Source: Micavibrio sp.
GTDB taxonomy: Bacteria > Patescibacteriota > Minisyncoccia > Moranbacterales > GCA-2747515
DNA length: 64,000 nt
Assembly: GCA_020718085.1 (NCBI GenBank)
Contig: DYDB01000006.1
Coordinates: 8,510-72,509, forward strand
Direction: 5' to 3'
Position numbers and translations under genes: made by a program. Numbering within the stretch: the stretch's first letter is position 1; each line of letters opens with the position of its first letter. This document shows, one piece after another, positions 27,330 through 59,536 of this stretch. The notes beneath the pieces were generated by a model that ran no database searches, was not told the DNA's origin, and saw only the letters and a program-made list of their open reading frames with translations.

Positions 27330-28283
27330 TCAGTTTGCTACCGGTAAGTCTCCTGCTTGGCGTAGTTCACGTATGGAGAGGTAGAGGAATACGCCAAGGA
27401 TGATAATCGTATTGAGTGGAGCGAGCCAATAAGGGAAATGTTCTCCAAATGCTTCCAATATCATGATGCCTCCAAGCACGCCAATGGAATACATAGCACC
27501 ATTTTTGAGATATTCATATTTTGCAATGCGATCTATGCCTTTGACCGTCAGTTCACGTACAACAAATGCACCAATGCCGTTGCCAATCAAAATGAGCGGA
27601 ATGGATAACGTGAAAGCAAAGGCGCCAATTACGCCATCGATGGAAAAGCTGGTATCTAATACTTCGAGGTAAATAATTTTTGACCATGCGGACACATTGC
27701 TTTTTGTCTGCAATTCTTTCTCTTTCTCTTCTGCGTTTTTTTTGAAACCGTCTGTGATGAAGAATGCAGAAACACCGATGCTTGCTGCAAGCGCAAGATG
27801 CGGAATTTCTTGGTATGAAAGCGCCTTATATACGATAAGGGTGGTGACGATAGATGAAATCGCATAAAACCACACGCTTTGACGATGAAGAAATCCTTCA
27901 ACCAAAAATGCATATTTCTTTTCTTCCATAAAAAGCCATGCGAGAAAGACAAAAAAAAGATAGACACCGCCTGCCAAAAGAAGAAGAGGTTTTGAACGTT
28001 CCAAGGATTCAACAACAGCGCTGTCTTGTGAAAATGCAGCTGTAAAAACCTGTACGATCGAAAGATCCGGATTGGCGATCCAAATGATCACAAACGGGAG
28101 TAGCCCGCGAACAATAAAGACAGCAAAAAGAATACCCCAAAAAAGAAAGATCTTTCGATATTTTTGTGGCAATGTACGCAAAACATGTGCATTTACGATC
28201 GCATTGTCAATTGAAGAAATAATTTCAAAAACAACCAAACCAATAATGATGACAACGGCAGAAAAAAACATATTTTGTAACAT
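27330..28283 (-). CDS. TerC/DUF475-family integral membrane protein
   Basis: The N-terminal 'FEIISSIDNAIVNA' resembles the TerC E..LS.DN motif. Multi-TM, 317 aa. Confidence 0.5.
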   Translation of the reverse strand: MLQNMFFSAVVIIIGLVVFEIISSIDNAIVNAHVLRTLPQKYRKIFLFWGILFAVFIVRGLLPFVIIWIANPDLSIVQVFTAAFSQDSAVVESLERSKPLLLLAGGVYLFFVFLAWLFMEEKKYAFLVEGFLHRQSVWFYAISSIVTTLIVYKALSYQEIPHLALAASIGVSAFFITDGFKKNAEEKEKELQTKSNVSAWSKIIYLEVLDTSFSIDGVIGAFAFTLSIPLILIGNGIGAFVVRELTVKGIDRIAKYEYLKNGAMYSIGVLGGIMILEAFGEHFPYWLAPLNTIIILGVFLYLSIRELRQAGDLPVAN

Positions 28284-43027: not shown

Positions 43028-44113
43028 ATGATATGTAAAAATAGTATGATGCATAACGATATGATCCTCAAAAATCTCAATATTTATTTCTTTCTGGCAC
43101 TTCTGATAGGTGGTTCTATCGCGGGGTTTTTACTTGTCAAACCATTTCTTGGAGCTATATTCATTGCCGCGCTTTTTGCCGTACTTTTTAATAGACCTTA
43201 TGAGTATATAAGTGCAAAAATGCACAGTCCGGCGATCGCATCTGCGATCATGCTTTGTATTGTGGTCATCACGATCATTTTGCCGATCATATTTATTTCT
43301 GGATTGGTAGTTAGTGAAGTGTCGCAAGTGATTGCCGAGGCTACAATAGAAGATTCTGGTATGCGAAAATCTGTGGATGCGGTTGTAGAAAAGGTCTCAC
43401 AATTGCCATTTTCAGAAAAAGTGCTACATAACATAACACTGGACAGCATTAATGAAGAACAAGTTGTGAGAGTGTTAAAAAATACCGCATCATTCTTTCA
43501 AGCCGCATATCAAAGTGTTGTTAATGGTGTGATCGGATTTTTTGTGATGCTTTTTACGTTATTTTATTTCTTTATTGACGGACGACGTTTTGTGCACTAT
43601 GGAATGCAACTGAGTCCGCTACAGGATAGACATGAAGTGAAATTGATCCAGGAATTTATCTCCATGACACGCGCAACATTAAAAGGCACTGTTGTAATTG
43701 GATGTATTCAAGGAATCATCGGTGGTATTGCATTTGCAATTGCAGGAGTTGTTTCACCAATTTTTTGGATGGTTGTAATGATCGTCTTTAGTATTATTCC
43801 TGCTGTGGGAGCAGGTTTTGTGATCTTTCCTACAGCGATTGTGATGCTTCTCTTGGGGCATGTGTGGCAAGCGATCTTCCTGATCGTGGTCGGAACACTT
43901 GTATCAATTATTGACAATATTTTGCGACCAAAACTAGTCGGAAATGATACCCAGATGCATAGCTTGGCAGTATTCTTCGCAACGCTTGGCGGACTAAAGC
44001 TTTTTGGATTCATTGGATTTGTCGTTGGTCCGATCATTATGGCGCTCATGCTTGCAATGTGGAAGATCTACGCTGTTGAATTCAAAAAAGATCTGGAGCG
44101 ATTTAACGCATAG
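43028..44113 (+). CDS. AI-2E family transporter (UPF0118/PerM-like)
   Basis: 8 TM. C-terminal 'LVSIIDNILRPKLVGNDTQMHSLAVFFATLGGLKLFGFIGFVVGPIIMAL' is the AI-2E signature. Confidence 0.7.
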   Translation: MICKNSMMHNDMILKNLNIYFFLALLIGGSIAGFLLVKPFLGAIFIAALFAVLFNRPYEYISAKMHSPAIASAIMLCIVVITIILPIIFISGLVVSEVSQVIAEATIEDSGMRKSVDAVVEKVSQLPFSEKVLHNITLDSINEEQVVRVLKNTASFFQAAYQSVVNGVIGFFVMLFTLFYFFIDGRRFVHYGMQLSPLQDRHEVKLIQEFISMTRATLKGTVVIGCIQGIIGGIAFAIAGVVSPIFWMVVMIVFSIIPAVGAGFVIFPTAIVMLLLGHVWQAIFLIVVGTLVSIIDNILRPKLVGNDTQMHSLAVFFATLGGLKLFGFIGFVVGPIIMALMLAMWKIYAVEFKKDLERFNA

Positions 44114-46436: not shown

Positions 46437-46481
46437 AATGTATCTCACACTTTTTTCAAAAATGTGGTATACTGTCTTGGT

Positions 46482-47795
46482 ATGGATATAGGTGAAGATT
46501 ATTCGCATCTATATGCGGGTGAAATAAAAAAACGGAAAAAGAAAATATATACAGACGGTTTAAAAGTTGTCGCGAAGAAACTCTGCGTTGATGCAGTGCG
46601 CGCACAAATGGGAGAACGTCATAATAATATTTCTGCCTTACTTCTACGGGGTGAGCGCACGAGTTTTTTTGTTACTGAAGATTCTGGTAAATATATCACT
46701 CCACTTGCACAACAAAAATACATGCAGAGCTATGAGCGCATCAACGCTGGGATGCGTTTTGATAGTGTGCATATTCGCTATCAAAAAAAATATACTGTCG
46801 GTGAAATGCATGTAAAACAATTGTCGGTTTATACAGATCGTTTCTTCAACACGGTGGAAAATTATCGCGCAGCCCTGCGTATTACGATGTCGCCTGTGCG
46901 TATGTACCAAGTTTCACTTGGAGGTGCGATGATATTTGGCATGGTTTCCATGAGCATGATCTATCAGAACCTTGGTCCCAGTGTATTTGCTGAGGGATTA
47001 GAAAATGTTATGAATAAAAATGATGATGCAAAAGAGGTTGTGCGCGTGATCGAAAATGTTGCCGATGAAAAAGAGCTTGTACAAGAAGAAAAAGTAGATG
47101 AAGGAAATGAAGATGTAAAAGAAGACGTGCAGGAAGAGATTAAGAGGACTGATGAAGTTTCTAAAGAAGAGGGACAGATCAAAAATGAAGATGAAAATAT
47201 ACAAAAGTCGGAACCGGTGATCATGTCGGATATTGTACCAAAGAATACGGAAGCGACTTCGCAGGAAAAACAAACGTCCGAAGAAAATAAAATGCAGGTT
47301 GTAACAAAATCAGTTGATAGTGTTGTCAAAAAGGAAGATGTGACAGAATCTGAAAGCATATCGGAAAAAACTCTTGAAGAATTGGCATATGAAACAGTAA
47401 AAGGACATCCAATTGAAAAGATGTTGCCATACATTCTCGAGCAGGATCCTGAAGTGGCAAAATATTTTATTGCCATTTCAAAACAAGAAAGCGGTTTTGG
47501 TGAACATGTGCCGGTTCTTAACGGACAGGATTGCTATAACTATCTTGGGTATCGTGGAAAGCGCAAGTTGATGGGAACGGGTGGACATACATGTTTTAAT
47601 AGCCGTAAGGATGCAGTGGAAACGATCAGTAAGCGTATCAAAACATTGATCTATGATCAGGATCAGAACACAGCACGAAAGCTTGTGGGTACATGGAAAT
47701 GTGGTAGCAAGGATTGTGCCGGACACTCAAAAGAGAGTGTCGATCGATGGGTGGGTTCTGTGGGGTCAACATATGATCAATTATCTGGAAAATGA
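46482..47795 (+). CDS. Membrane-anchored protein with an acidic E/K-rich linker and a C-terminal Cys-rich transglycosylase-like (QES motif) domain. Paralog of the 58718..59536 gene
   Basis: TM 'GGAMIFGMVSMSMIY'. ~130-aa low-complexity E/K region. C-terminal domain 'GHPIEKM...AISKQESGFGEHVP...DCYNYLGY...C...AVE...KR...WKCGSKDCAGHSKESVDRWVGSV'. The ORF track starts at the GTG at 46464. Confidence 0.55.
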   Translation: MDIGEDYSHLYAGEIKKRKKKIYTDGLKVVAKKLCVDAVRAQMGERHNNISALLLRGERTSFFVTEDSGKYITPLAQQKYMQSYERINAGMRFDSVHIRYQKKYTVGEMHVKQLSVYTDRFFNTVENYRAALRITMSPVRMYQVSLGGAMIFGMVSMSMIYQNLGPSVFAEGLENVMNKNDDAKEVVRVIENVADEKELVQEEKVDEGNEDVKEDVQEEIKRTDEVSKEEGQIKNEDENIQKSEPVIMSDIVPKNTEATSQEKQTSEENKMQVVTKSVDSVVKKEDVTESESISEKTLEELAYETVKGHPIEKMLPYILEQDPEVAKYFIAISKQESGFGEHVPVLNGQDCYNYLGYRGKRKLMGTGGHTCFNSRKDAVETISKRIKTLIYDQDQNTARKLVGTWKCGSKDCAGHSKESVDRWVGSVGSTYDQLSGK

Positions 47796-47916
47796 TCATG
47801 ACTCTGTGAAAAGGCGTAATAAACGCCTTTTTTGTGTAGTTGCTAAGAACTTGTCAGATATTATTTTACTGGTAATATTGTAATTGTTTTGATTTTTATA
47901 AAAAATAATTTGCATA

Positions 47917-48105: not shown

Positions 48106-49137
48106 ATGGAAAAGAGCAAAAGGATGTTGATCGCACTCAATAAAAAGCATTCCGAAATGTTTCAAAGTCAGAGGTTGGAACGGGAGTTGTATCTTTCACA
48201 GCATCCTACAAATGTGATCGTTTTTAAATGTATGGATGGACGCATTCACATGCCGACAGTAACACGTACTCCGCTTGGTATTATGCAACCATTTCGCAAC
48301 ATCGGAGGAAGGTTTGATTTAGGATGGCCGATGCTGAATGAGTCTTTTGATCAACATATCAAAAAAGCGGTGTCGAAAGGTAATCGTACACTCGTTTTGG
48401 TTACATATCATTTTTCCGCCGGTGATGAACATCGTGGTTGTGCAGGATTTAATTATGATTGCGAAGAATCGAAAAGATTCACAGAAAACTTTCGCAAACA
48501 AATTTTGCGTACATATGGAAAAGATAATGGTGTTGTCTACCCGATCCTTGTGGGCTTGGAAACTGATAAAGATGCGCTGATATTTCATGGGGAGCGTGGA
48601 CGCATTTTGGATGTGTCACAAATCGTTGATGCATCATTTGAATCATTATTTGTGTCATTTCATAAATTATATCCATCAATGCCGGAACGTATCCTACATG
48701 ATCTGATCCCATTGGTACAGGGTAATGTGCAATGTATTAAAGAAACAATGAACATGGGCAAGCCGCTCAAGCAAATGGTGCATGGTGAATGGATATTAGC
48801 TGTTGGAAAAGGTTTTGATTGGTTACATACGCCGAACATCGCTCTTATCGTAGGACCGTATGATCCGAATATTGGAGAACCGATCAAAAAAGCGGTAGGG
48901 ATCATCAAATCAAATTTACATACAAAAAAGACGAAAGACGGGTTTGTTCTCTTGTCATCAGCAGTATATTCTGACGCTGCGGAAAAAAACCGAGCAAAAG
49001 AACGCACGACATATCTTAGCAATTTAACACAAGAGATCATTGCGCAGCATTATGCGGATATGATTGCACGTACACATGTAATGTCTGTGATCATCAATGC
49101 ACAAACAATGGAAATGGAAATGATCAATCGAAAATAA
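48106..49137 (+). CDS. Beta-carbonic-anhydrase-like protein (internally duplicated; N-terminal half retains the zinc-site motif), first gene of the Nuo/Ehr-like cluster
   Basis: N-terminal half: 'KCMDGRI' (C-x-D-x-R), 'FRNIGG' (beta-CA RNxGN-like), 'YHFSAGDEHRGCAGF' (H-x-x-C-[AG]). The C-terminal half repeats the fold with ligands lost ('VQCIKETMNMG', 'FVLLSSAVYSDAAE'). Confidence 0.45.
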   Translation: MEKSKRMLIALNKKHSEMFQSQRLERELYLSQHPTNVIVFKCMDGRIHMPTVTRTPLGIMQPFRNIGGRFDLGWPMLNESFDQHIKKAVSKGNRTLVLVTYHFSAGDEHRGCAGFNYDCEESKRFTENFRKQILRTYGKDNGVVYPILVGLETDKDALIFHGERGRILDVSQIVDASFESLFVSFHKLYPSMPERILHDLIPLVQGNVQCIKETMNMGKPLKQMVHGEWILAVGKGFDWLHTPNIALIVGPYDPNIGEPIKKAVGIIKSNLHTKKTKDGFVLLSSAVYSDAAEKNRAKERTTYLSNLTQEIIAQHYADMIARTHVMSVIINAQTMEMEMINRK

Positions 49138-49241
49138 GATATTTGACAGGCACACCGGAGGAGAGTACCATATAGTCTATAAAAAAGCACAAATTGGCAT
49201 CAAAGAGTGACATGCCATGTTTTATAGTGTGAAAAAACTTT

Positions 49242-49787
49242 ATGAAAATTTTTAAGCTGATCTACCTATTGGTTTTTGGAAAAAAAGTAACGGAAAAACG
49301 AAAAAAATTCGAAGAAAAAAACCAGAGCGGAAAAGAATTTGATGTCATTGGTGCAGAGGTGCAACAAATCATCAAAAAATTGTACAATGGTCGATCCTTA
49401 CGCATTCGCGCTGTTGATGCTGGTTCAACCAATGCGGAAGAAATCGAGCTGACAGCATTAAATAATGCATATTATGACATTGATCGCTTTGGCTTGAGTT
49501 TTGTTGCATCGCCGCGTCATGCGGACATGCTCTTTGTAACAGGTCCGGTTACGAGAAATTTGGAAAACGCTCTTCGTACGACATATGAGGCTGCACCACA
49601 GCCGTGTATTGTGGTTGCTGTTGGAGATGGTGCATGTACGGGGGGAATATGGAAAGATTCATATGCTGTAGTTGGTGCCGTGGATCAGGTGATACCAGTG
49701 CATGTGCGTATTCCGGGAGACCCGCCAACCCCAACAGAGATCTTGCGGGGCATATTAACAGCGCTGAAAACAAATAACTCACAATAA
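49242..49787 (+). CDS. NuoB/HycG-like small subunit lacking 3 of 4 N2 [4Fe-4S] cysteine ligands
   Basis: 'SFVASPRHADMLFVTGPVTRNLENALRTTYEAAPQPCIVVAVGDGACTGG...PVHVRIPGDPPTPTE' aligns with NuoB 'ASPRQADVMIVAG...GACA.SGG...PGCPPRPE'. The CCxxE motif is replaced by 'DAGSTNAEEIE' and 'PGCPP' has become 'PGDPP'. Confidence 0.8.
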   Translation: MKIFKLIYLLVFGKKVTEKRKKFEEKNQSGKEFDVIGAEVQQIIKKLYNGRSLRIRAVDAGSTNAEEIELTALNNAYYDIDRFGLSFVASPRHADMLFVTGPVTRNLENALRTTYEAAPQPCIVVAVGDGACTGGIWKDSYAVVGAVDQVIPVHVRIPGDPPTPTEILRGILTALKTNNSQ

Positions 49788-49796
49788 TTCATATTT

Positions 49797-51797
49797 ATGT
49801 TAGGACAATATATTGTTTTTGGGATCATATTCTATTTTTTGAGCTTATTTCTATCTGGCGTTCTGGTGTTTATTGACCGTACGTTCATCAATGCAGCATG
49901 GCTTTTCGTTGTCTCTAACATTGTGGGATTTATTTCGGGTGTCTTGTATTTTGTTGGTTTTTTTGGATATAATATTACAATCGCGCATTTTGATTGGTTT
50001 TTTCAATTTTCACCACATATCGCATCTCTTTCTGCGATCTTTTTTACATTGATCAGCGGGGTTTCCGCGGTTGTGGGTGTGTATAGTGTGCGATATTTGA
50101 CCATCTACGAAAAAACGTATGATCCGCGGTCTGTACTGTTTTTGATGGCATTTTTTGTATTGGGCATGCAGGGAGTGATTGTCGCCAATAATGCATTTTC
50201 ATTTTTATTCTTTTGGGAATTGATGTCCATCTCATCATTTTTTCTTGTTCTTGTTGATCGTACGCAAAAATCAATTTCAGCAGCGTTTTTATATTTCATC
50301 ATGACGCATCTGGGAGCGTCAGCAATCTTGGGTGGATTCTTGATCTTGGGAAACGGTTCTTTTCTTTTTGAACTTTCAGGCATGTATGATGCAGCACAGA
50401 CATTGTCACCAGCGCTTCGCAATACGGCATTTCTTCTTTTCATTTTTGGATTTGGTTCAAAGGCTGGACTCGTACCATTTCACATCTGGCTCCCGGAGGC
50501 GCATCCTCAGGCACCAAGTAATATTTCTGCACTGATGAGCGGGCTGATGTTGAAGATCGCAATATACGGTTTTACAATGATCATACTCGCAATGGGGCAG
50601 ATGCCCGTATGGATCGCTCTGATCGTGTTATTTTTGGGAATGTTGTCCAGTATCGTGGGAGCACTTTATGCTGTTGTCGAGAGGGATATGAAACGTGCAT
50701 TTGCATACAGCAGTATTGAAAACATGGGAATTATCTTTTCCATGTTTGGACTGGCGTTGTATTTCTTTGCACAAGATGCTTCGATGGCTACATTAATGAT
50801 CGGAGTGAGCATAATTGCATTTGCTCTATTTCATGCAGTAAGTCACGCGCTTTTTAAAACGGCGCTCTTTCTTAGCAGTGGTGTTGTGATCAGTCGTACG
50901 CATACGAAGAGTCTTGATGCGATGGGAGGACTTGCAAAAATCATGCCGATTTTCACTGTTGGCTTTCTTGTGGTGACATTGAGCGCTTTGCCAATCCCTC
51001 CATTTGGTACATTTTACGGAGAATGGGGTTTTGTGCAGAATATCATTTTTGCAATGCGAGATATGATCATGGAACCAAAGACAATTGTGTTGCTACTTGG
51101 CACATTGATCGTGACAGGTCTGGTAAGTGGTTTGGCAATTTTTGCGATGATCCGTATTTTTAGCTTGTCGATGCTCGGGTTATCACATGATCCACGAAGA
51201 CCACATCGTGATGAAAGAATGGATCATCTTCTCATTATGCCAATTATCGTTTTGGGCATTACTGTTCTTGTGTGTGGTTTTTTTGCGAGCACGATCGTTG
51301 ATACATTGACTTTTGCGGTATATACAACTGGTGGATATGCGCGAGATATAACAGTAAATATAGCGCCGCATATGGACATGATGGTTGGTGTGGGGACAGT
51401 TTTGTGTTTTTTTGTGGGAGCGGCAATTTATATGTGGATCAAAAAAAATACACGAATGCGTGCATACCATACATGGGATTGTGGACAACCGATTGACGCG
51501 ACAATGCAATACAGTGCAACTGCGTTTTGTGCCCCGATCAGATTTTTTTTCCTTACATTTATCGGGCGTAAAAAGGTCATGTCTTCACAACCAATCATAC
51601 AATCGAACCCGTGGATCGTAAAGAATACATTTGCGTTATCCATACGATCGAAATGGAGTGATATATTCTATGATCCAATTGCAAAAATTCTGCTTTTCAT
51701 TGCTGATCGGATTCGTTTTGTACAAAATGGACGTATTCAATATTACATTCTTTTTCTCTTTCTTGCGTTAATTCTTACTCTTATATTTGTGTTATGA
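49797..51797 (+). CDS. NuoL/MrpA/HyfB-like antiporter-type membrane subunit (666 aa)
   Basis: 'GLVPFHIWLPEAHPQAPSNISALMSG' is the WLPDAxxxxPTPVSAL antiporter-module motif. About 16-18 TM. Confidence 0.85.
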   Translation: MLGQYIVFGIIFYFLSLFLSGVLVFIDRTFINAAWLFVVSNIVGFISGVLYFVGFFGYNITIAHFDWFFQFSPHIASLSAIFFTLISGVSAVVGVYSVRYLTIYEKTYDPRSVLFLMAFFVLGMQGVIVANNAFSFLFFWELMSISSFFLVLVDRTQKSISAAFLYFIMTHLGASAILGGFLILGNGSFLFELSGMYDAAQTLSPALRNTAFLLFIFGFGSKAGLVPFHIWLPEAHPQAPSNISALMSGLMLKIAIYGFTMIILAMGQMPVWIALIVLFLGMLSSIVGALYAVVERDMKRAFAYSSIENMGIIFSMFGLALYFFAQDASMATLMIGVSIIAFALFHAVSHALFKTALFLSSGVVISRTHTKSLDAMGGLAKIMPIFTVGFLVVTLSALPIPPFGTFYGEWGFVQNIIFAMRDMIMEPKTIVLLLGTLIVTGLVSGLAIFAMIRIFSLSMLGLSHDPRRPHRDERMDHLLIMPIIVLGITVLVCGFFASTIVDTLTFAVYTTGGYARDITVNIAPHMDMMVGVGTVLCFFVGAAIYMWIKKNTRMRAYHTWDCGQPIDATMQYSATAFCAPIRFFFLTFIGRKKVMSSQPIIQSNPWIVKNTFALSIRSKWSDIFYDPIAKILLFIADRIRFVQNGRIQYYILFLFLALILTLIFVL

Positions 51798-53395
51798 ATT
51801 CCTTAATAGCCATTTCTATACAGATCATATTTGTTTTGTTGGTTGCACCGTTTGCATCTGGTATGGTTCGGTTTGTAAAAGCGCGCTTACAAGGAAGGCA
51901 TGGTGCGTCACCATTTCTTCCATATATAACATTATTAACTTTGATGCGTAAAGAGATGGTTGTATCATCTGCAACATCGTGGATATTTCACGTTGTGCCA
52001 TTTGTGGTTTTGGGAAGCACATTTGCTTTAGCGTGTATTGTGCCAACGATCTTTGTAGGAACATCAGTTGCAAATGTGAGTGATTTTTTGGTTGTGGCAG
52101 GCATACTGATCATTGGCTCAGTTTTCTTGGTCATGGGTGGTTTGGATACGGGAAGTGCGTTCGGTGGTATGGGCTCAAGTCGTGAGATGACAATTGCCGC
52201 GTTGTTGGAACCAGTGATCATTATGGTTTTTGCGACACTGAGTTTTGTAACGGGAACGTCAACAATTGATGGTATGTTACAACAACAATTGAGTTTTGCG
52301 GATCCGTATTTGTTTTTAATTATTGGCGCTCTTGGACTTGTTGCATTGGCGGAAAACGCACGATATCCTGTAGATAATCCTGCAACACATTTGGAATTAA
52401 CAATGGTACATGAGGCAATGATCTTGGAATATTCCGGTGCGTATCTGGCTTTGTTGGAGTATGCAGCAGCAATTAAGTTAACAATCTTTTCTCTCCTTAT
52501 TGCAAACTTTGCTTTTCCTCAGACGATGCTCAGTGGTTCTTTGGAGGGTGGTATCGCAGCTGTTGGTGTGGGAATGGTTTATGCCACAGTAAAGATCATT
52601 GTAGTGATGATCGGTTTGGCTTTTGTAGAATCTTTACTGGTAAAAATGCGATTCTATCGTATGTCTGAATATTTTTCTATTGCTTTTGTTGTAGCATTGT
52701 TGGGCATGATCGTTGCTCTTTTTTCCCAACATGCCGGAGTATCGATGCAATATCATGTGCTTTTCTCGCTGTGTACGATCATTTGCATCGTCTTATTATT
52801 TGGACGCGTGCGTCTCAAGGCTATGTTGCGATACTATGCAATCTCTTCTTTTGCGATTGCAGGTATCGCGTGGGGATTATTACCACTTGTAGTGGAGGAA
52901 GAAAGGATTCATTTGTGGATATTTGCTCTTTTCACAATTGTGACAAAAACATTCGCAGTACCATATGTGATCAATCATGCGGGGCATGTGAAGAAAAGTC
53001 TCACAAACCTCCCATCGTTTTTACGACCGGGGAAAAGTTATTTTCTAGCGGTTATTCTTCTTATGATCACATACTTTGTTTTGAATGAAGTGTCTATTAC
53101 GGGTCTCATTAAATGGAATTCTTTACTTTATGCATCTGTTGCCTCAATTGTTCTTGGCATTGCTCTGATGATCATTAAGAGAAATATTTTTTCGCAAATC
53201 ATCGGATTATTGATCATAGAAAATGGAATCGCAATTTTTGTGTTGGCAACAGTTGGTTCATTGCCAGTGATGATCGAATTTGGCATTTTTGCCGTGACAG
53301 TGGCAACTGCATACATTTTGGCATTGTTGAGTGCACAGATCAATGAACTGTATGGTAGTACTGATACGGAAGACCTGCGAGAACTGATCGAGTAA
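51794..53395 (+). CDS. Fusion of a NuoH/HycD-like subunit with a NuoK/HyfE-like C-terminal module (533 aa)
   Basis: N-terminal 'KARLQGRHGASPFLPYITLLTLMRKE' matches NuoH/HycD 'R.QxRxGPxxLQPxxDxLKLxxKE'. C-terminal 'IIGLLIIENGIAIFVLATVGSLPVMIEFGIFAVTVATAYIL' is NuoK/HyfE-like with a membrane-embedded Glu. The start overlaps the upstream stop (ATGA). Confidence 0.7.
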   Translation: MNSLIAISIQIIFVLLVAPFASGMVRFVKARLQGRHGASPFLPYITLLTLMRKEMVVSSATSWIFHVVPFVVLGSTFALACIVPTIFVGTSVANVSDFLVVAGILIIGSVFLVMGGLDTGSAFGGMGSSREMTIAALLEPVIIMVFATLSFVTGTSTIDGMLQQQLSFADPYLFLIIGALGLVALAENARYPVDNPATHLELTMVHEAMILEYSGAYLALLEYAAAIKLTIFSLLIANFAFPQTMLSGSLEGGIAAVGVGMVYATVKIIVVMIGLAFVESLLVKMRFYRMSEYFSIAFVVALLGMIVALFSQHAGVSMQYHVLFSLCTIICIVLLFGRVRLKAMLRYYAISSFAIAGIAWGLLPLVVEEERIHLWIFALFTIVTKTFAVPYVINHAGHVKKSLTNLPSFLRPGKSYFLAVILLMITYFVLNEVSITGLIKWNSLLYASVASIVLGIALMIIKRNIFSQIIGLLIIENGIAIFVLATVGSLPVMIEFGIFAVTVATAYILALLSAQINELYGSTDTEDLRELIE

Positions 53396-53414
53396 TTTCT
53401 TATCTTATTTTATT

Positions 53415-54890
53415 ATGATCATTATATTATTAACATTGTTCATTCTCACAGCAATTGGTGCGTGGTTTGGACGTAATGCAAAAAATGTGCGCACTGTCAG
53501 TGTATTTTTAGCCGCGTTAAGTAGCATTATGCTCGTACTGGCTGCATGGTCACCAGTAATGTATGGACAGATCGCGCGATATGGATCATGGTGGACGATT
53601 GATGGTTTTTCGGGTCTCATGATCATATTGATCGCATGCGTATACATGGCCACTGTTGCGATTAGCGTGCGATATATCGGTCATGAATTGGCAAGTCAAA
53701 TCATTTCTTTCAATCAGTATCGGTTGTATTTTACATTACTTCCGATCTTTGCTTTGTGTATGGTGATCACTGTACTTACCAATAACTCTCTGGTGTTATG
53801 GCTTGCATTGGAAGGAACAACACTTTTTTCAACATTTCTTGTAGGTCTGTACCGTAAAAAAACAAGCATTGAAGCAGCATGGAAATACATGATCCTTTGC
53901 TCAACGGGCATTAGTATTGGTTTAGTTGGTATTTTGTTATTGAGCTATGGTGTGCATGACAGCGAAATTCGTGGAGGTGAAATGTTCTTGATCAGCACAT
54001 TAGTGGAACATGCACAACTGATCCCAGAAAATATTATAAAACTTTCTTTCGTCCTGCTCTTTATTGGTTTTGGAACAAAGGTGGGTCTGGTTCCAATGCA
54101 TACATGGTTACCCGATGCACATAGTAAAGCACCATCTCCAATTTCTGCTATTTTTTCGGCGGTATTGCTCAATGTTGCACTTTATGCAATTATCCGTTTC
54201 AAATACATTGCGGATGTATCCTTTGGAAATGCAGAATGGACGAGTCAGTTATTTGTGATATTTGGATGCATCTCAGTATTTTTGGCTGCACTTATGATGC
54301 TCATTCAACAAAATTATAAACGCATGTTGGCATATTCCAGTATTGAACACATGGGACTTATACTTTTTGCGATCGGACTTTCTCCATTTGGCGCAATTGC
54401 TGCTGTGATGCATATGATCGGACACACATTTGCTAAGTCAGCACTTTTTTTTGGTGCTGGTGAGATCCTGATCCGTTGGAAAACGACAAAGATCCCAAAA
54501 ATTGCCAATATGTATGTGCAAGCGCCGTATACAAGCATTCTTTTTATCATTGCAATCTTGGGCATTATTGCAATCCCACCATCAGCACTTTTTGTGAGTG
54601 AGTACGGTATGTTTGCGCAGGCGATCATCATGTATCCAAAAACTACATTAGCACTTTTTGTTGCTCTGGCTGTGATCGCTTATGCGATGCTCTCTCTCAC
54701 GATCACGATGGTCTTTCATGAGGATGAGAGTAAGATAAATGGAAGTATCAAGAAGGAGTCATGGAATATTACACATACAGTGATCGTGATCGAACTGGTC
54801 ATAATTGTGATCTTTGCAATGTGGTTTACAACAACACAGGGTTCTGACGTGATCAACAATATCGTTAATAGTTTTTTGTTTATAAAATAA
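53415..54890 (+). CDS. NuoM/NuoN/MrpD/HyfF-like antiporter-type membrane subunit
   Basis: 'GLVPMHTWLPDAHSKAPSPISAIFSAVLLNVALYAIIRF' is the canonical antiporter-module motif. 491 aa, ~14 TM. Confidence 0.85.
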   Translation: MIIILLTLFILTAIGAWFGRNAKNVRTVSVFLAALSSIMLVLAAWSPVMYGQIARYGSWWTIDGFSGLMIILIACVYMATVAISVRYIGHELASQIISFNQYRLYFTLLPIFALCMVITVLTNNSLVLWLALEGTTLFSTFLVGLYRKKTSIEAAWKYMILCSTGISIGLVGILLLSYGVHDSEIRGGEMFLISTLVEHAQLIPENIIKLSFVLLFIGFGTKVGLVPMHTWLPDAHSKAPSPISAIFSAVLLNVALYAIIRFKYIADVSFGNAEWTSQLFVIFGCISVFLAALMMLIQQNYKRMLAYSSIEHMGLILFAIGLSPFGAIAAVMHMIGHTFAKSALFFGAGEILIRWKTTKIPKIANMYVQAPYTSILFIIAILGIIAIPPSALFVSEYGMFAQAIIMYPKTTLALFVALAVIAYAMLSLTITMVFHEDESKINGSIKKESWNITHTVIVIELVIIVIFAMWFTTTQGSDVINNIVNSFLFIK

Positions 54891-54908
54891 GTGGGATGCA
54901 TGTGATCT

Positions 54909-56489
54909 ATGATCATGCACAATAAGAATATGGATATCAAAGAAATCAGCAATCGTTTTCAAAACATGACAATAGTTTCTGTGGATGAAAGTCTCATGTG
55001 TGTTCGTGTCTCACGTGAGGATCTTGCACATGTCATCACATCTCTTGTAGAAGAAGGTCAGGCGCAACTATCATCTCTTTTTGCCACAGACGATCGACAA
55101 GAACAAGGTGTATTTGGTGTACATGCGATTTGCAGCATATACGATGTACCTCAGCGAATGATGATCTCTATTTCCATTCCTGCTGATGATCCACAATATC
55201 CATCGATCACACAAACGGTTATGGCTGCGCATTGGTATGAACGTTATATGAGGGATATGTTTGGTATTGAACCTGTTGGACATCCAGATTTGCGACGATT
55301 GGTGCATCATGAAAATGTGCCAGAAAATATTCATCCACTCAGAAAAGATTTTGCATGGAATACGAAAATGCCAAAAGCAAACATCGCATATCCGATGCAC
55401 CATATAAAGGGAGAGGGTATATTTGAAATTCCTGTCGGACCGATTCATGCAGGTATCATTGAGCCGGGACACTTTCGTTTCAATGTGGCAGGGGAACGCA
55501 TTCTTACACTAGAGGGCAAGTTATTTTTTACACACAAGGGTGTAGAAAAATTGGTGGAAAACAAGAAACCTATTGATGCGTTACCCTTTATTGAAAGATT
55601 GTCTGGAGACATGAGTGCTGCACATGCACTTGCATATGTGGAGGCTGTGGAAAAGATCGGGCAATGTCATGTATCAAAACGAGCACAGATGTTGCGTGCG
55701 ATCATCACGGAATGTGAGCGTATCACAATGCATATACATGACCTTGCAAATATCGGCGGCATGGGAACAGGATACAGTTTTATTGCGGCGAATGGATTTC
55801 GTATCAAAGAACGTATGATGCGTTTGTCAGATGAGCTATGTGGTAATCGTTTTTGGCGGGGCGTTATCACAATTGGCGGCATGACAAGGGATTGGACTAC
55901 AGATGAACTTGATCATGTAGTTGCGACCTCTTATGAAGCATGGCAAGAAATTGCACATATTGTATCTTTGGCATTGGACAGTGAAGGATTCCTGGATCGT
56001 TTACAGTATACGGGGGAATTGCCATACGAGGCGGCGCAGGCGTTTGGGGCTGTTGGATTACCTGCACGTGCTTCTGGTGTGGATCGTGATGTGCGCAGAG
56101 ATTATCCATATGCATCATATACAGACTTTCCGGTAACGGTGATCAAAAAGAAAAGTAGCGATGTGTTTGCGCGATACCGTATGCGTATCTTAGAAATTGA
56201 ACAATCTATTGCGTTGATTAAAACACTTGTAGCAGAAATTGCGGACGGAGAGGTTATGACATCATGTGAACCGAAAAATGGCCTTGCTATTGGTTCAGTG
56301 GAGTCATGGAGGGGTGAAATTATTTGTGTGGTACGCATAAATAATGGCGTGATCGACAGATGTTTTCCACGTGATCCGTCTTTTTGTAATTGGGCGCTTT
56401 TTGGTATTATGGGGCCTGGTAATATTGTGCCGGATTTTCCACTAATTAATAAAAGTTTAAATCTCTCCTATTCGGGAACGGATCTATAG
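54909..56489 (+). CDS. Fused NuoC-like + NuoD/[NiFe]-hydrogenase-large-subunit-like protein lacking all four NiFe-binding cysteines
   Basis: N-terminal NuoC-like 'AAHWYERYMRDMFGIEPVGHPDLRRL'. The large-subunit region where hydrogenases carry RxCGxCxxxH reads 'ERLSGDMSAAHALAYVEAVE'. The C-terminal 'VESWRGEI...RDPSFCNWALFGIM...SLNLSYSGTDL' lacks the DPCxxCxxH motif. Confidence 0.8.
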   Translation: MIMHNKNMDIKEISNRFQNMTIVSVDESLMCVRVSREDLAHVITSLVEEGQAQLSSLFATDDRQEQGVFGVHAICSIYDVPQRMMISISIPADDPQYPSITQTVMAAHWYERYMRDMFGIEPVGHPDLRRLVHHENVPENIHPLRKDFAWNTKMPKANIAYPMHHIKGEGIFEIPVGPIHAGIIEPGHFRFNVAGERILTLEGKLFFTHKGVEKLVENKKPIDALPFIERLSGDMSAAHALAYVEAVEKIGQCHVSKRAQMLRAIITECERITMHIHDLANIGGMGTGYSFIAANGFRIKERMMRLSDELCGNRFWRGVITIGGMTRDWTTDELDHVVATSYEAWQEIAHIVSLALDSEGFLDRLQYTGELPYEAAQAFGAVGLPARASGVDRDVRRDYPYASYTDFPVTVIKKKSSDVFARYRMRILEIEQSIALIKTLVAEIADGEVMTSCEPKNGLAIGSVESWRGEIICVVRINNGVIDRCFPRDPSFCNWALFGIMGPGNIVPDFPLINKSLNLSYSGTDL

Positions 56490-56584: not shown

Positions 56585-57496
56585 ATGTATGATCAAAATG
56601 GAAAAAAAATTGTGGCTACGGTACCTTTTTTTGATGGTGAATGTAATGCAATTGTTGCAATGCCGATCAGTTTTAATTTTATGGATGAAATGATTGGTTG
56701 TACACGAGTTGCATTGGGTATGAAGAGATTTGATCTCTTGGGTATCCCTGGATTTTCCAAGAGAGTATCTCTTGATAGTAAAACTGTTTTGGATACGATC
56801 ACACTCGCAGTTACAAAACACCTTGTTCGTGACATTGTGATATTTCAGCACATGGATTTTCACAATGATGGTAATTCGACACGATTTGTGAGTAGGCTTG
56901 ATGAGGACTATTATCATAAAAGGATCCTTATTGATGCAGCACAGAAGATCAAAACGCTATATCCAGAAATAAATGTGGCATTGATCTATGCAAGGATTGT
57001 AAAAAGCAAGAGCGAGATTGAGTTTTCCAAGATCTTCCAAAGTGGTAATGAAGAAGTGTGTCTGCGCACTCCGTTTCTTTTTGGGAAGGTGAATACATGT
57101 GGAAATACGGTTATACAATGTTTGGATTATCGATTCAGGGCAGAAACACGACAATGTATTCAAAATGCCTTTGGCGTCGAACATTTCAATATCATCGGTC
57201 TTCCTGGATCTACAAAATCGTTTTTGGAGGGAAGCATGACTGCGTGGAAGGGAATTAAAATGTCCTATGAAAAACATGGTTGTCGGAGGTTTTTCATCGT
57301 TCATCATGAGGATTGTGGTGCATATGGAAGTTCCAGATCTTTTGTCAATCCTGAAAAGGAAGAAGCCTTTCACAATGTACAATTGTGTGCAATGAGAGAT
57401 CGACTTGTAAAAATGTACACAGATGTTGACGTTATACTGATCTATGCAAAGCTCATTGGCACAACAAATCGAATGATCCAATTCATTGTTGTATGA
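56585..57496 (+). CDS. Beta-carbonic-anhydrase-like protein (internally duplicated pseudo-dimer; C-terminal half retains the complete zinc-site motif), last gene of the cluster
   Basis: C-terminal half: 'VIQCLDYRFRAE' (C-x-D-x-R), 'FNIIGLPGSTKSF', 'FFIVHHEDCGAYG' (H-x-x-C-G-A, cf. beta-CA HSDCGA/HTNCGG). N-terminal half is the degenerate repeat: 'AIVAMPISFNFMDE', 'FDLLGIPGFSKRV', 'IVIFQHMDFHNDG'. Confidence 0.5.
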   Translation: MYDQNGKKIVATVPFFDGECNAIVAMPISFNFMDEMIGCTRVALGMKRFDLLGIPGFSKRVSLDSKTVLDTITLAVTKHLVRDIVIFQHMDFHNDGNSTRFVSRLDEDYYHKRILIDAAQKIKTLYPEINVALIYARIVKSKSEIEFSKIFQSGNEEVCLRTPFLFGKVNTCGNTVIQCLDYRFRAETRQCIQNAFGVEHFNIIGLPGSTKSFLEGSMTAWKGIKMSYEKHGCRRFFIVHHEDCGAYGSSRSFVNPEKEEAFHNVQLCAMRDRLVKMYTDVDVILIYAKLIGTTNRMIQFIVV

Positions 57497-57633: not shown

Positions 57634-58098
57634 ATGTTTACAATTGGTGCATTCGGTGTGATCATTAACAAAAATAATGAAGTTCTTTTGTGTCACCGGC
57701 GAGATAAGGACATCTGGGATATTCCTGGTGGTATGGTGGAACGCGGTGAATCTCCATGGGAGGGTGCTGTGAGAGAGATAAAAGAAGAGGTTGGGCTTGA
57801 TATTGAGATCGTGCGATTGGTTGGTGTGTATAGCAAAAAAAAGAAAAATGATGTGATATTTTCTTTTTTATGCAAAATTTGTGGTGGTGAGATCTCGTTA
57901 ACAGATGAGGCAGATGAGATCGCGTATTTTTCCATAGATGATCTGCCAAAAAATTTATCACCAAAACATGTAGAGCGAATTATGGATGCGACACAAGGTG
58001 CTGCACGCACTCTTTTGAAAATACAAAGTGATTTATCCGGATGGGATTTAGTGCAACGTGCATATAAAAAAGAAAAAAGTGATATAGGTTCTATATGA
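57634..58098 (+). CDS. NUDIX hydrolase
   Basis: Nudix box 'GGMVERGESPWEGAVREIKEEVGLDIEI' (GX5EX7REUXEEXGU). Confidence 0.9.
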   Translation: MFTIGAFGVIINKNNEVLLCHRRDKDIWDIPGGMVERGESPWEGAVREIKEEVGLDIEIVRLVGVYSKKKKNDVIFSFLCKICGGEISLTDEADEIAYFSIDDLPKNLSPKHVERIMDATQGAARTLLKIQSDLSGWDLVQRAYKKEKSDIGSI

Positions 58099-58400
58099 GC
58101 AAAAATCATCGCAGCGGTGGAAAAATGGGTGGAAGGCACACAACGGTAATTGATGCGTCAAAACCGATTATTGATCATCTTCTCAAAAATCCTTATGTTA
58201 CAAATATTATTGCAGGGCGCATTAAAACTGGGATTGGAGCTGCTCCTCAAAGACTTAAATTACGCGAGGAATCGGGATGCTTGTTGATCACTGTTCGTGG
58301 TAGCGCAAGTATGCAAGAAATACGAGTCTTCTCTACAGAAATGCAGAAAGTTATTAATGATCTGCAAAATGAGTTCACGAAACTATGCAAGAAAAAATGA
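58095..58400 (+). CDS. Hypothetical protein (101 aa). Its start overlaps the NUDIX stop (ATGA)
   Basis: Translationally coupled ORF. No family recognised. Confidence 0.4.
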   Translation: MSKNHRSGGKMGGRHTTVIDASKPIIDHLLKNPYVTNIIAGRIKTGIGAAPQRLKLREESGCLLITVRGSASMQEIRVFSTEMQKVINDLQNEFTKLCKKK

Positions 58401-58717
58401 TCTGTTATGGATAAAATATTCGTCACGGGTGCTTTTTTTGATGGTACATGATTGCAAGATCCATTAAAATGGTATAAATATTTGATGGATGCTTTAGCAA
58501 TATTTTATTCGTGACAATGTCCATTTGGAGGTGTTCTTGAAGAGGTGAAAAAATAGAAAAAACCATTAATTCAAGCCATTTTTTGGCATTTGTGCATAAC
58601 TTTTCATTGACTTTTTCGCTCATTTTAGTATACTTGGTTCTGCGTGTGTTTTTTATAGACACACTTCTTTGTTTCTTAGCAAGGAGCGAAGTGGGGGTTT
58701 TATTCGTAAAACAACTT

Positions 58718-59536
58718 ATGGTTATTAATGAAGAACCATCACTGATCAAGCGTCTACGTGTGGGGACGCTCAAGATGCTTAAAGCATCACTACATACAGT
58801 TCGTTTATATACAACAAAATATGCATATTTTGTGCTCACAGGTGTTACATTCATGATTGCCGGAAGTTTTTTTGTGTTTAATCACAGCACGGAGGCAATT
58901 GGTGATGAAATGCCTATCGCAGATCAAGAATTGCAACAGTACACAGCATGTGTTTTTAGCAAAAGTCTTATGGACACAGATGCAAATCAAGGCATAACTG
59001 TGGGTATTGATGAGGAATGTAAAAAGGCTAGTGCAAATGATGTGTTCGTTGAAACGGAAGAGGATTGGTTTGAGCAAGAGTTGAATGATATGCTCGCCGG
59101 TCACCCAATGGAGATCATGGCAGGATCGATCGCACAACAGGATAAAAAGGTTGCCGGTTTGATCGTGGGTATTGCAAGACAAGAAAGCCAATGGGGTATG
59201 CATGCACCATCAAAGGGCGGCGTGGATTGTTATAATTATTGGGGCTATAAATCTACAGGTACACGTGGGCAATCAATGGGATATGCGTGCTTTGGATCAC
59301 CTCAGGAAGCTGTGGAGGTTGTGGCAAAACGATTGGATCATTTTGTGTACGATGCACATCGTGATACACCAGCAAAGATGGTAACGCCATGGAAATGTGG
59401 CAATAGTTGCGCATCACATTCGCCGGAAAGTGTGCAAAGATGGGTGGGTACAGTGAGTACATATTTCAATCAAATTGTTGCATTGGATGTGCAAGACACA
59501 CAAATACAAAATACATTATTATCTTTCAATAAATAG
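58718..59536 (+). CDS. Membrane-anchored Cys-rich transglycosylase-like (QES motif) domain protein. Paralog of the 46482..47795 gene
   Basis: TM 'YAYFVLTGVTFMIAGSFFVF'. C-terminal domain 'GHPMEIM...IARQESQWGMHAP...DCYNYWGY...C...AVE...KR...WKCGNSCASHSPESVQRWVGTV' aligns along its length with the 46482 protein. The start is uncertain: the ORF track begins at a TTG at 58583, and the first in-frame ATG is 58718. Confidence 0.5.
   Translation: MVINEEPSLIKRLRVGTLKMLKASLHTVRLYTTKYAYFVLTGVTFMIAGSFFVFNHSTEAIGDEMPIADQELQQYTACVFSKSLMDTDANQGITVGIDEECKKASANDVFVETEEDWFEQELNDMLAGHPMEIMAGSIAQQDKKVAGLIVGIARQESQWGMHAPSKGGVDCYNYWGYKSTGTRGQSMGYACFGSPQEAVEVVAKRLDHFVYDAHRDTPAKMVTPWKCGNSCASHSPESVQRWVGTVSTYFNQIVALDVQDTQIQNTLLSFNK

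Follow-up and report, generated by a model that had tools for sequence, protein, structure and literature searches.

The window analysed here comprises 64,000 nucleotides (64 kb) of contig DYDB01000006.1, from the genome of an ultra-small groundwater bacterium assigned to the Moranbacterales within the Patescibacteriota, and it harbors a gene cluster related to complex I and to group 4 [NiFe] hydrogenases. The interval 49242-56489 is exactly filled by five co-directional, tightly packed open reading frames (ORFs), and this putative operon is bracketed by two genes encoding carbonic anhydrases (CAs), designated CA1 and CA2 (Table 1). Homologues of the hydrogenase small subunit, of NuoC/D, of NuoH and of antiporter-like subunits are clustered, as judged from Pfam and NCBIfam matches and from full-length PDB alignments with HycG, HycE, HycD and MbhH. 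The nearest solved structures are HycG, HycE and HycD of the E. coli formate hydrogenlyase (FHL) and subunits of the P. furiosus Mbh complex. A first-pass annotation of this DNA had counted three antiporter-like subunits. This was a miscount, as PF00361 is found in two proteins (666 and 491 amino acids, aa), while the 533-aa protein is a fusion whose Pfam matches confirm the NuoH- and NuoK-like membrane parts named in the same annotation. The start of the fusion gene overlaps the end of the 666-aa gene by 4 nt. Instead of a seven-subunit MrpA-G set, just MrpA/D-like and NuoK-like parts were found, alongside the NuoB, NuoCD and NuoH homologues. NuoA and NuoJ were absent from the cluster and from the part of the window that was scanned for protein families (29 ORFs, 24.4-63.5 kb).

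Table 1. Genes and putative signals of the cluster and its immediate flanks (window coordinates)
Feature	Coordinates	Strand	Length (aa)	Evidence
Terminator-like hairpin and T-run closing the upstream gene; likely 5' boundary of the unit	47810..47835	+		Read by eye from 'aaaggcgtaataaacgccttttttg'
CA1, CsoSCA-type beta-CA without carboxysome N-terminal domain	48106..49137	+	343	Pfam CsoSCA_cat 5.8e-7
Sigma-70-like site (TTGACA-17-TACCAT) in the gap from CA1 to the small-subunit gene; best match of the region	49143..49171	+		Consensus match only
NuoB/HyfI-like small subunit	49242..49787	+	181	Pfam Oxidored_q6 2.5e-24; PDB HycG 8e-28, MbhJ 8.7e-28
HyfB/NuoL-like antiporter-like subunit	49797..51797	+	666	NCBIfam 'hydrogenase 4 subunit B' 6.5e-133 (full length); PF00361
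Fusion of NuoH/HycD/HyfC-like (residues ~1-310) and HyfE/NuoK-like (~327-531) parts	51794..53395	+	533	Pfam NADHdh 1.2e-27, Oxidored_q2 5e-7; NCBIfam HyfE 2.3e-15; PDB HycD 7z0s_D 1.9e-26
HyfF/NuoM-like antiporter-like subunit	53415..54890	+	491	NCBIfam 'hydrogenase 4 subunit F' 5.2e-99; aligned to MbhH 6cfw_H
Fused NuoC+NuoD/HycE/HyfG-like large subunit	54909..56489	+	526	Pfam Complex1_30kDa, Complex1_49kDa, NiFeSe_Hases; HycE 7z0s_E 3e-69
CA2, tandem (pseudo-dimeric) beta-CA, Pro_CA_2	56585..57496	+	303	Pfam Pro_CA_2 1.6e-19

Alignment of the large subunit with E. coli HycE pairs 'RVCGICGFAH' with 'RLSGDMSAAH' and 'SLDPCYSCTD' with the C-terminal 'SLNLSYSGTD', which is not followed by a C-terminal processing extension. 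Where group 4 hydrogenases carry the L1 (RxCGxCxxxH) and L2 (DPCxxCxxH/R) motifs, the protein reads 'RLSGDMSAAH' and 'NLSYSGTDL', and the four [NiFe] cysteine positions are occupied by S232, M235, S520 and G523. The earlier claims that every [NiFe] ligand is replaced and that the protein ends at SLNLSYSGTDL were thus borne out. For the small subunit, alignment with HycG and MbhJ pairs 'VDCGGCNGCEIE' with 'VDAGSTNAEEIE', 'CNGC' with 'TNAE' and 'PGCPP' with 'PGDPP', confirming the previously noted changes in the CCxxE and PGCPP motifs. Residues T, E, G and D occupy the Fe-S ligand positions, and the ligands of a proximal [4Fe-4S] cluster are therefore missing. The same was seen for the ligands of cluster N2, as in an alignment with NDUFS7/Nqo6 the Cys of 'GSCANGGG' pairs with Gly and 'PGCPP' with 'PGDPP'. 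One of the four N2 cysteines had been thought to persist in 'GDGACTGG'; however, this residue, Cys132, lies two residues past the canonical third ligand position (Gly here) and gives way to Ile ('GDGAIDGG') in many members of the clade, so that none of the four is kept. In total the small subunit contains two Cys. Shifted ligands were considered and rejected, since ungapped and MAFFT alignments with HycG, MbhJ, NDUFS7 and more than 100 homologues revealed no compensating Cys.

In an alignment with Nqo4, 'RMDY' pairs with 'RLSG', which places a Gly at the position of Tyr87, and the second His of 'GPQHPSTHG' (His38) pairs with Ile in 'GPIHAGIIE'. Tyr87 and His38 (T. thermophilus numbering) are residues of the complex I quinone site. 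No ORF of at least 50 aa in the whole window contains the ferredoxin motif CxxCxxCxxxC[PGA], and no member of the NuoE/F/G/I or hyp families was found among the 29 scanned ORFs. The NuoI/HycF, NuoE/F/G and maturation genes previously stated to be absent from the operon were likewise not found among these scanned ORFs around it. As far as can be judged from the sequence, the canonical NiFe and proximal [4Fe-4S] cofactors cannot be held by the predicted complex and, because both sites are lost, its soluble cap cannot pass electrons. The notion of a complex that cannot carry electrons is thereby supported by the missing NiFe and Fe-S ligands, the missing quinone-site Tyr and His and the lack of a ferredoxin-like subunit gene in the window.

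Conservation of the cluster proteins was examined next. About 120 close homologues of the large subunit share 60-79% identity with it, and all of those with a source name derive from Patescibacteria (Moranbacteria, Falkowbacteria or 'Parcubacteria group'). Across 25 homologues from the Candidate Phyla Radiation (CPR) the mean column identity is 70%, and S232, G233, D234, S516, L517, L519, S520, Y521, S522, G523 and D525 are invariant, as are the SGD motif and the C-terminal motif SLNLSYSGTD(L/M). Pump residues of the membrane subunits are conserved in at least 95% of the sequences (26-34 clade members). In the 666-aa subunit E141, K222, K253 and K354 reach this level among 28 clade members, and in the 491-aa subunit E133, K222 and K341 are conserved. 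Compared with MbhH (6cfw_H), the latter retains the Glu of transmembrane helix (TM) 5 and the Lys residues of TM7 and TM12, while the TM8 Lys is replaced by Asn; the TM5, TM7 and TM12 residues are present in both antiporter-like subunits. The NuoH-like part keeps the HycD-type loop 'GLDTGS.F...G.SRE' and several Glu, and the HyfE/NuoK-like part keeps two Glu. These patterns show strong purifying selection on the cap, on the predicted NuoH-type coupling loops and on the Lys/Glu chains of the two antiporter-like subunits. With pump residues and coupling loop conserved, the non-redox ion-translocating role proposed in the first-pass annotation gains support.

The completeness of the cofactor loss might suggest the remnant of a group 4 hydrogenase that was acquired laterally and is now decaying and without function, and at least one lineage seems to have deleted the cluster, so that of the large-subunit gene just the 3' part survives beside CA1 (locus L121, probably also L120; see below). 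Since the replacement residues are invariant, identity is high and the pump residues are conserved, the cluster has not decayed. The ORFs are intact with translational coupling, more than 100 homologues share 60-79% identity and keep the replacement motifs unchanged, and the synteny with atp (ATP synthase) and CA genes described below is stable in genomes under strong reduction. We consider such a remnant extremely improbable.

Relatives of group 4 hydrogenases without Ni-Fe ligands are defined as Ehr (PMC4758237; PMC6349859), and in papers up to 2023 their function was called unknown and mostly presumed to be redox (PMC6349859; PMC10432482; PMC10284858; 10.1101/765248). Like the Ehr described in 2013, the window cluster combines NuoB-, NuoC/D-, NuoH- and NuoL/M/N-like genes and lacks the CxxC Ni-Fe ligands, so that the Ni- and Fe-coordinating cysteines are missing from the large subunit. 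By its sequence the complex is a member of this published family, for which the missing NiFe ligands were already known. A family scan with one genome per species yielded 80 loci, 67 with Cys-less large subunits carrying the motif SGD[MSTEN]...NLSYSG and 13 with true CCCC hydrogenases. The Cys-less loci belong to Nitrospirota, Rokubacteria, Actinomycetes, Acidobacteriota, Thaumarchaeota, Methanosarcinales, Methanomassiliicoccales, Acetobacterium, Thiobacillus, Gallionella and others. Counted by the SxxS/G pattern at the ligand positions, 69 loci besides the window match, as against the 13 hydrogenases with CCCC. The label 'Ehr-type' given before is therefore appropriate, as the window protein shares its SGD...NLSYSG motif with dozens of Cys-less large subunits of Bacteria and Archaea, among them those of Nitrospirota, Thaumarchaeota, Actinomycetes and Rokubacteria. 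A rough neighbour-joining (NJ) tree, calculated without NuoD outgroup or support values, places the CPR clade among Ehr and group 4 sequences, and the best family scores are divided between Hyf and NuoD models.

The small subunit sets the window clade apart. All four Fe-S cysteines are kept in most of the Ehr sampled, including nearly all non-CPR loci, whereas T/S/N, E, G and D/N/E/S take their places in every member of the Parcubacteria-type clade. A sister group of loci from metagenome-assembled genomes (MAGs) labelled Daviesbacteria, Saccharibacteria, Thermoleophilia and Bdellovibrionales also lacks the Fe-S cysteines, and so do two Methanosarcinales loci (L067 and L070, 'DTDN'/'DPDN'). In a survey of the 150 best 50%-identity representatives from a library of 1.8 billion proteins, 87 small subunits had all four Cys and about 17-20 had none. 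By its sequence, the window complex thus belongs to a minority of Ehr that have lost both cofactors. The literature searched, which did not include the founding paper (Marreiros 2013), contains no description of a conserved CPR clade that has also lost the Fe-S cluster, although a prior mention is possible. The clade further differs from other Ehr in the fusion of the NuoH- and HyfE-like parts.

Several additional observations concern the distribution of these traits. In the loci from MAGs labelled Daviesbacteria, Saccharibacteria, Thermoleophilia and Bdellovibrionales (L008, L012, L015, L017 and L022) the Fe-S positions read 'TCDD', 'DCGD' or 'SEGD', a loss parallel to that in the two Methanosarcinales loci, and no CA neighbor was noted in either group. 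The fusion of the NuoH-like and HyfE-like parts (530 aa) occurs throughout the Parcubacteria-type clade, while the two are separate proteins (~315 and ~220 aa) in the deeper CPR branches (L005, L006, L109-L115) and in non-CPR Ehr. One Chloroflexota MAG (L051) combines a CCCC large subunit with an adjoining small subunit that has E, C, E and D at the Fe-S positions. ORF calling in high-GC loci was crude, and this combination may reflect either that or a truly unusual hydrogenase.

The comparison across Ehr bears on whether the complex could still be a redox enzyme, in which the cap would receive electrons from an unlinked docking partner, for instance a flavoprotein, a ferredoxin-dependent enzyme or a formate dehydrogenase, and hand them to an unknown acceptor via a non-canonical cofactor site. 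Ehr from other phyla mostly retain the four small-subunit cysteines, C485 and C493 of the window large subunit are conserved, and roles coupled to formate dehydrogenase or other oxidoreductases have been proposed for Ehr (PMC6349859; 10.1101/765248). Yet in the window complex all four Fe-S and all four NiFe ligands are gone, one of the two cysteines left in the small subunit is not conserved, the quinone-site Tyr and His are absent, no ferredoxin-like ORF was found in 64 kb and about 40 CPR loci revealed no recurrent oxidoreductase neighbor. In addition, quinones and respiratory chains are generally lacking in CPR (PMC11665869; PMC4508563). For this clade a hidden redox function is accordingly very unlikely, and pseudogenisation is unlikely as well.

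The most informative evidence came from the neighboring genes, on which the first-pass annotation was silent, mentioning neither the two flanking CA genes nor the synteny with CA and ATP synthase genes in relatives. Both flanking proteins show a beta-CA fold with Cys-His-Cys Zn ligands and the Asp(/Arg) dyad. The family profile of CA1 matches CsoSCA in the PDB (2fgy, 7.9e-11), and an AlphaFold2 model of the protein (pLDDT 90.7) has the CsoSCA structures 8thm and 2fgy as top Foldseek matches (E about 1e-16 to 5e-17, TM-score 0.72). Across 30 homologues, its residues C42, D44, G45, R46, H102 and C112 do not vary. In CA2 the C-terminal half retains the Zn-site motif, with C179, D181, R183, H241 and C244 invariant. 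No relationship between the two was detected by profile comparison. The flanking CAs belong to PF20686 and PF20393, and PF10070 (DabA) had no match in the Pfam scan.

To extend this to relatives, CA genes were counted in 36 non-identical CPR loci, which are related to each other and hence not phylogenetically independent. Twenty-two CA-like genes of four families occupy 22 of the 56 slots adjacent to the cluster, while none was found among 236 other flanking genes (Fisher p = 3e-18, to be read with the non-independence of the loci in mind). Six distinct configurations of family and position occur. The families are CsoSCA-like (upstream or downstream), Pro_CA_2, a family termed 'X185' and a gamma-CA of the Cam/CcmM type. 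The latter retains its three His ligands; it matches PDB 3kwc (1.3e-32) and also, weakly, the gamma-CA subunits of mitochondrial complex I (6x89_G2, 7a23_q). X185 proteins (170-250 aa) have a conserved Cys...His-x-x-Cys motif, but their similarity to beta-CAs is weak (Pfam Pro_CA 0.007 for one member only; hhalign to CA2 E = 0.0027, probability 11%), and X185 is assigned to the beta-CAs only tentatively.

A second recurrent neighbor is the ATP synthase. In about 20 loci an atp operon (atpA-G-D-C) ends directly upstream of the cluster. Two further Patescibacteria loci, L123 (2237-10071) and L125 (2211-10065), contain a complete atpIBEFHAGDC operon followed at once by a CsoSCA-like CA gene, and the ~9 kb retrieved to each side held no Ehr cluster. 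Since these CA1-side loci pair atp with CA, all three pairwise links occur (Ehr-CA, Ehr-atp and atp-CA). The c-subunits of L123 and L125 ('AFAEAVAIYALV', lacking the Gln/Ser/Thr motif for Na+) appear to be of the H+ type, which says little about the window genome. Gene order thus ties the cluster to several mutually unrelated classes of CA, and its relatives also to F1Fo. Synteny of Ehr with CA and ATP synthase genes had no prior description in the literature searched, again without the founding paper.

A partial locus was observed in L121 (8749-10198). Of the large-subunit gene, only the 3'-terminal ~66 codons are present there; they lie downstream of CA1, match window residues 461-526 at 80% identity and precede a gene for a Na+/Ca2+ exchanger. 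Fragment and exchanger recur in L120 (359-1537), on a contig that begins only ~360 nt upstream. It looks as though the Ehr cluster was deleted in the L121 lineage and the CA left behind, and probably likewise in L120.

Outside CPR the link to CAs is shown by the Thiobacillus clade only. These Ehr retain the Fe-S cysteines and lie far from the CPR clade in the rough, unsupported NJ tree. In L074 (2776-4537) genes for a TauE/SafE exporter and a gamma-CA lie upstream of the cluster, the latter directly adjoining it. In L083 (2582-13344) a SulP/STAS transporter gene is located two genes upstream, a CsoSCA-like CA gene two genes downstream with one opposite-strand ORF in between, and a LysR regulator gene further downstream. 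These neighbors suggest a role of Ehr related to inorganic carbon in an autotroph. A CA as universal partner of Ehr was rejected, as no CA recurred among 107 neighboring genes of non-CPR Ehr clusters scanned in bulk against Pfam; the commonest neighbors were ArsR-type regulators (7 of 107).

What can be said about function derives from sequence, predicted structure and gene neighborhood. On this basis, the explanation that we put first, at about even confidence, is that the complex is a non-redox ion translocator linked to the interconversion of CO2, HCO3- and H+ and to the F-ATPase. It would move H+ across the membrane, possibly in exchange with Na+, and this movement would be coupled to the reaction CO2 + H2O <-> HCO3- + H+ catalysed by the adjacent CA or CAs. 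By analogy with DabAB and cyanobacterial NDH-1MS, the complex might then act as a vectorial CA or as a proton-supply module. Instead of electron transfer, the power source would be an ion gradient built by the F-ATPase from fermentative ATP. Either direction is conceivable, with the gradient being spent to hydrate CO2 or a CO2/HCO3- disequilibrium being used to move ions, and the complex could serve as a proton-supply device in a cell so small that free protons become limiting.

Several points weigh against this explanation. The functional evidence for it is gene context throughout, most non-CPR Ehr loci are without a CA neighbor, and about one third of the CPR loci with both flanks visible (L005, L006, L089-L093, L095 and L096) have no adjacent CA. 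In the window itself the atp operon is not adjacent to the cluster. That unrelated CA classes are interchangeable argues against a specific docking interface and is in line with a looser link via metabolism, for instance through buffering or the supply of protons; together with the loci that lack an adjacent CA, it makes looser coupling the favored form. A freely active cytosolic CA would short-circuit a bicarbonate pump of the DAB type, and because CO2 hydration alone gives little free energy, a direction generating proton-motive force would be thermodynamically tight. Finally, the explanation assigns no role to the NuoB/CD cap, which is empty and yet highly conserved.

A serious rival, although in our view an unlikely one, is a plain Mrp-like Na+/H+ (cation/proton) antiporter, in which the NuoB/CD/H cap would be a structural or regulatory relic and CAs and F-ATPase would be linked to it via pH and ion homeostasis only. 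The CA would buffer the cytoplasm of a tiny cell while ATPase and antiporter move protons, with no mechanistic coupling to CO2 hydration. Two MrpA/D-type subunits and a NuoK-like part with conserved Lys/Glu are consistent with this, H+ and Na+ transport are combined in the nearest solved relatives MbhH/Mbh, and a Na+/Ca2+ exchanger gene adjoins the cluster in some loci. A loose metabolic link also predicts what is seen for the CAs, whose classes are interchangeable and which are absent in about one third of loci, and a review considers that the CPR ATP synthase may run in reverse for antiporters or pH homeostasis (PMC11665869). However, the soluble cap is the most conserved part, its mean column identity being 70% and residues about the former active site being invariant; genomes of ~1 Mb would hardly be expected to preserve a relic so well. 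Moreover, equivalents of MrpB/E/F/G are absent, and CA adjacency is very tight (22 of 22 CA genes) and recurs in Thiobacillus by the anion transporter genes SulP/STAS (L083) and TauE/SafE (L074).

The preferred reading, an ion translocator linked to CO2/HCO3-/H+ interconversion, has a stronger form that we regard as doubtful. In this form CPR Ehr would be a third, independently evolved vectorial CA, in which CO2 hydration/HCO3- dehydration replaces redox chemistry as the coupled reaction, with a docked CA or the pocket that once held NiFe/N2 as its site. Membrane energisation in Patescibacteria without respiratory chain would then have this complex and the co-encoded F1Fo as its core. The F-type ATP synthase of Patescibacteria lacking a respiratory chain has been called surprising, and competing explanations have been listed (PMC11665869). 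The Ehr cluster is a candidate for its missing partner, and the stronger form, if true, would explain why these fermenters retain an ATP synthase.

Among known systems, DabAB/MpsAB and cyanobacterial NDH-1MS come nearest as functional precedents. DAB2/MpsAB combine NuoL-like and beta-CA-like subunits, are gradient-coupled and occur also in heterotrophs (bioRxiv 10.64898/2026.03.13.711513). As in DabAB/MpsAB, a proton-conducting PF00361 subunit of the complex I type is encoded together with a Zn enzyme of beta-CA fold. In DabAB, however, DabA (PF10070) inserts a transmembrane 'finger' into DabB, the single PF00361 subunit, whereas the CAs next to Ehr are soluble (CsoSCA-type, Pro_CA_2, X185, gamma) and accompany a five-protein Hyf-like complex including NuoB/CD cap and NuoH. 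The CO2-uptake complexes NDH-1MS/MS' of cyanobacteria (CupA/CupB) are machines of the complex I family tied to CO2 hydration via their antiporter-like subunits (see PMC6981117). NDH-1MS differs in being driven by electron transfer from ferredoxin to plastoquinone and in keeping its Fe-S clusters, and CupA is unrelated to the CAs found here. In mitochondrial complex I of plants and protists gamma-CAs are likewise associated with a membrane arm of this family, but they are structural subunits of a redox-active enzyme, while the association with CPR Ehr is genomic and the window CAs are beta-type.

Among hydrogenases, E. coli hydrogenase 4 (HyfABCDEFGHI) is matched by the window set minus HyfA, HyfD and HyfH, with HyfB, HyfE and HyfF as the best curated families. 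FHL-1 (Hyc) provides the best solved relatives (HycE, HycG and HycD), and NuoC and NuoD are fused as in HycE/HyfG. Unlike Hyf and FHL-1, the window complex has neither the ferredoxins HyfA or HyfH/HycF nor the third antiporter-like subunit HyfD, the NiFe/Fe-S ligands or a C-terminal extension for HycI-type cleavage, and no formate dehydrogenase or hyp genes were found nearby. Mrp, Mbh and Mbx resemble it in their MrpA/D-like and NuoK-like subunits with a Glu/Lys chain, MbhH being the closest solved relative of the 491-aa subunit. Mrp has no NuoB/C/D/H, Mbh and Mbx keep their redox cofactors, and the window complex has no MrpB/E/F/G-type subunits.

A conserved clade without any redox ligand suggests that the scaffold of complex I and hydrogenases can work without electron transfer. 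Ehr are spread over many phyla, including nitrifiers, methanogens, actinomycetes and CPR, and the repeated recruitment of four CA families together with the ATP synthase synteny offers a concrete and testable idea of what they couple to. Should the coupling to CAs be true, non-autotrophic symbionts would be added to the range of the principle seen in DAB and NDH-1MS, in which CO2 hydration is driven by a complex I module.

The boundaries of the operon are tentative, because promoter-like sites in the promoter/terminator scan were no commoner than in shuffled sequences. The consensus terminator scan did not pick up the hairpin upstream of CA1. Downstream of CA2, genes for a NUDIX hydrolase and a DUF2103 protein (predicted to bind metal) follow on the same strand (57634-58400), with no terminator called in between; the order CA2-NUDIX-DUF2103 is the same on the identical MAG contig L126, and the downstream gene has an identical copy on a groundwater MAG contig. 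The entire CA1-Ehr-CA2-NUDIX-DUF2103 block is bracketed by two paralogous ORFs (46464-47795, 443 aa; 58583-59536, 317 aa), neither with a Pfam match, which have in common a C-terminal domain of ~130 aa reading 'QES..G.H.P...DCYNY.GY...WKCG...H S.ESV.RWVG'. Other ion-handling genes of the neighborhood lie further upstream and encode a P-type (E1-E2) cation-transporting ATPase (40286-42979), a transporter of the AI-2E family (43028-44113) and, on the minus strand, a membrane protein of the TerC family (27330-28283).

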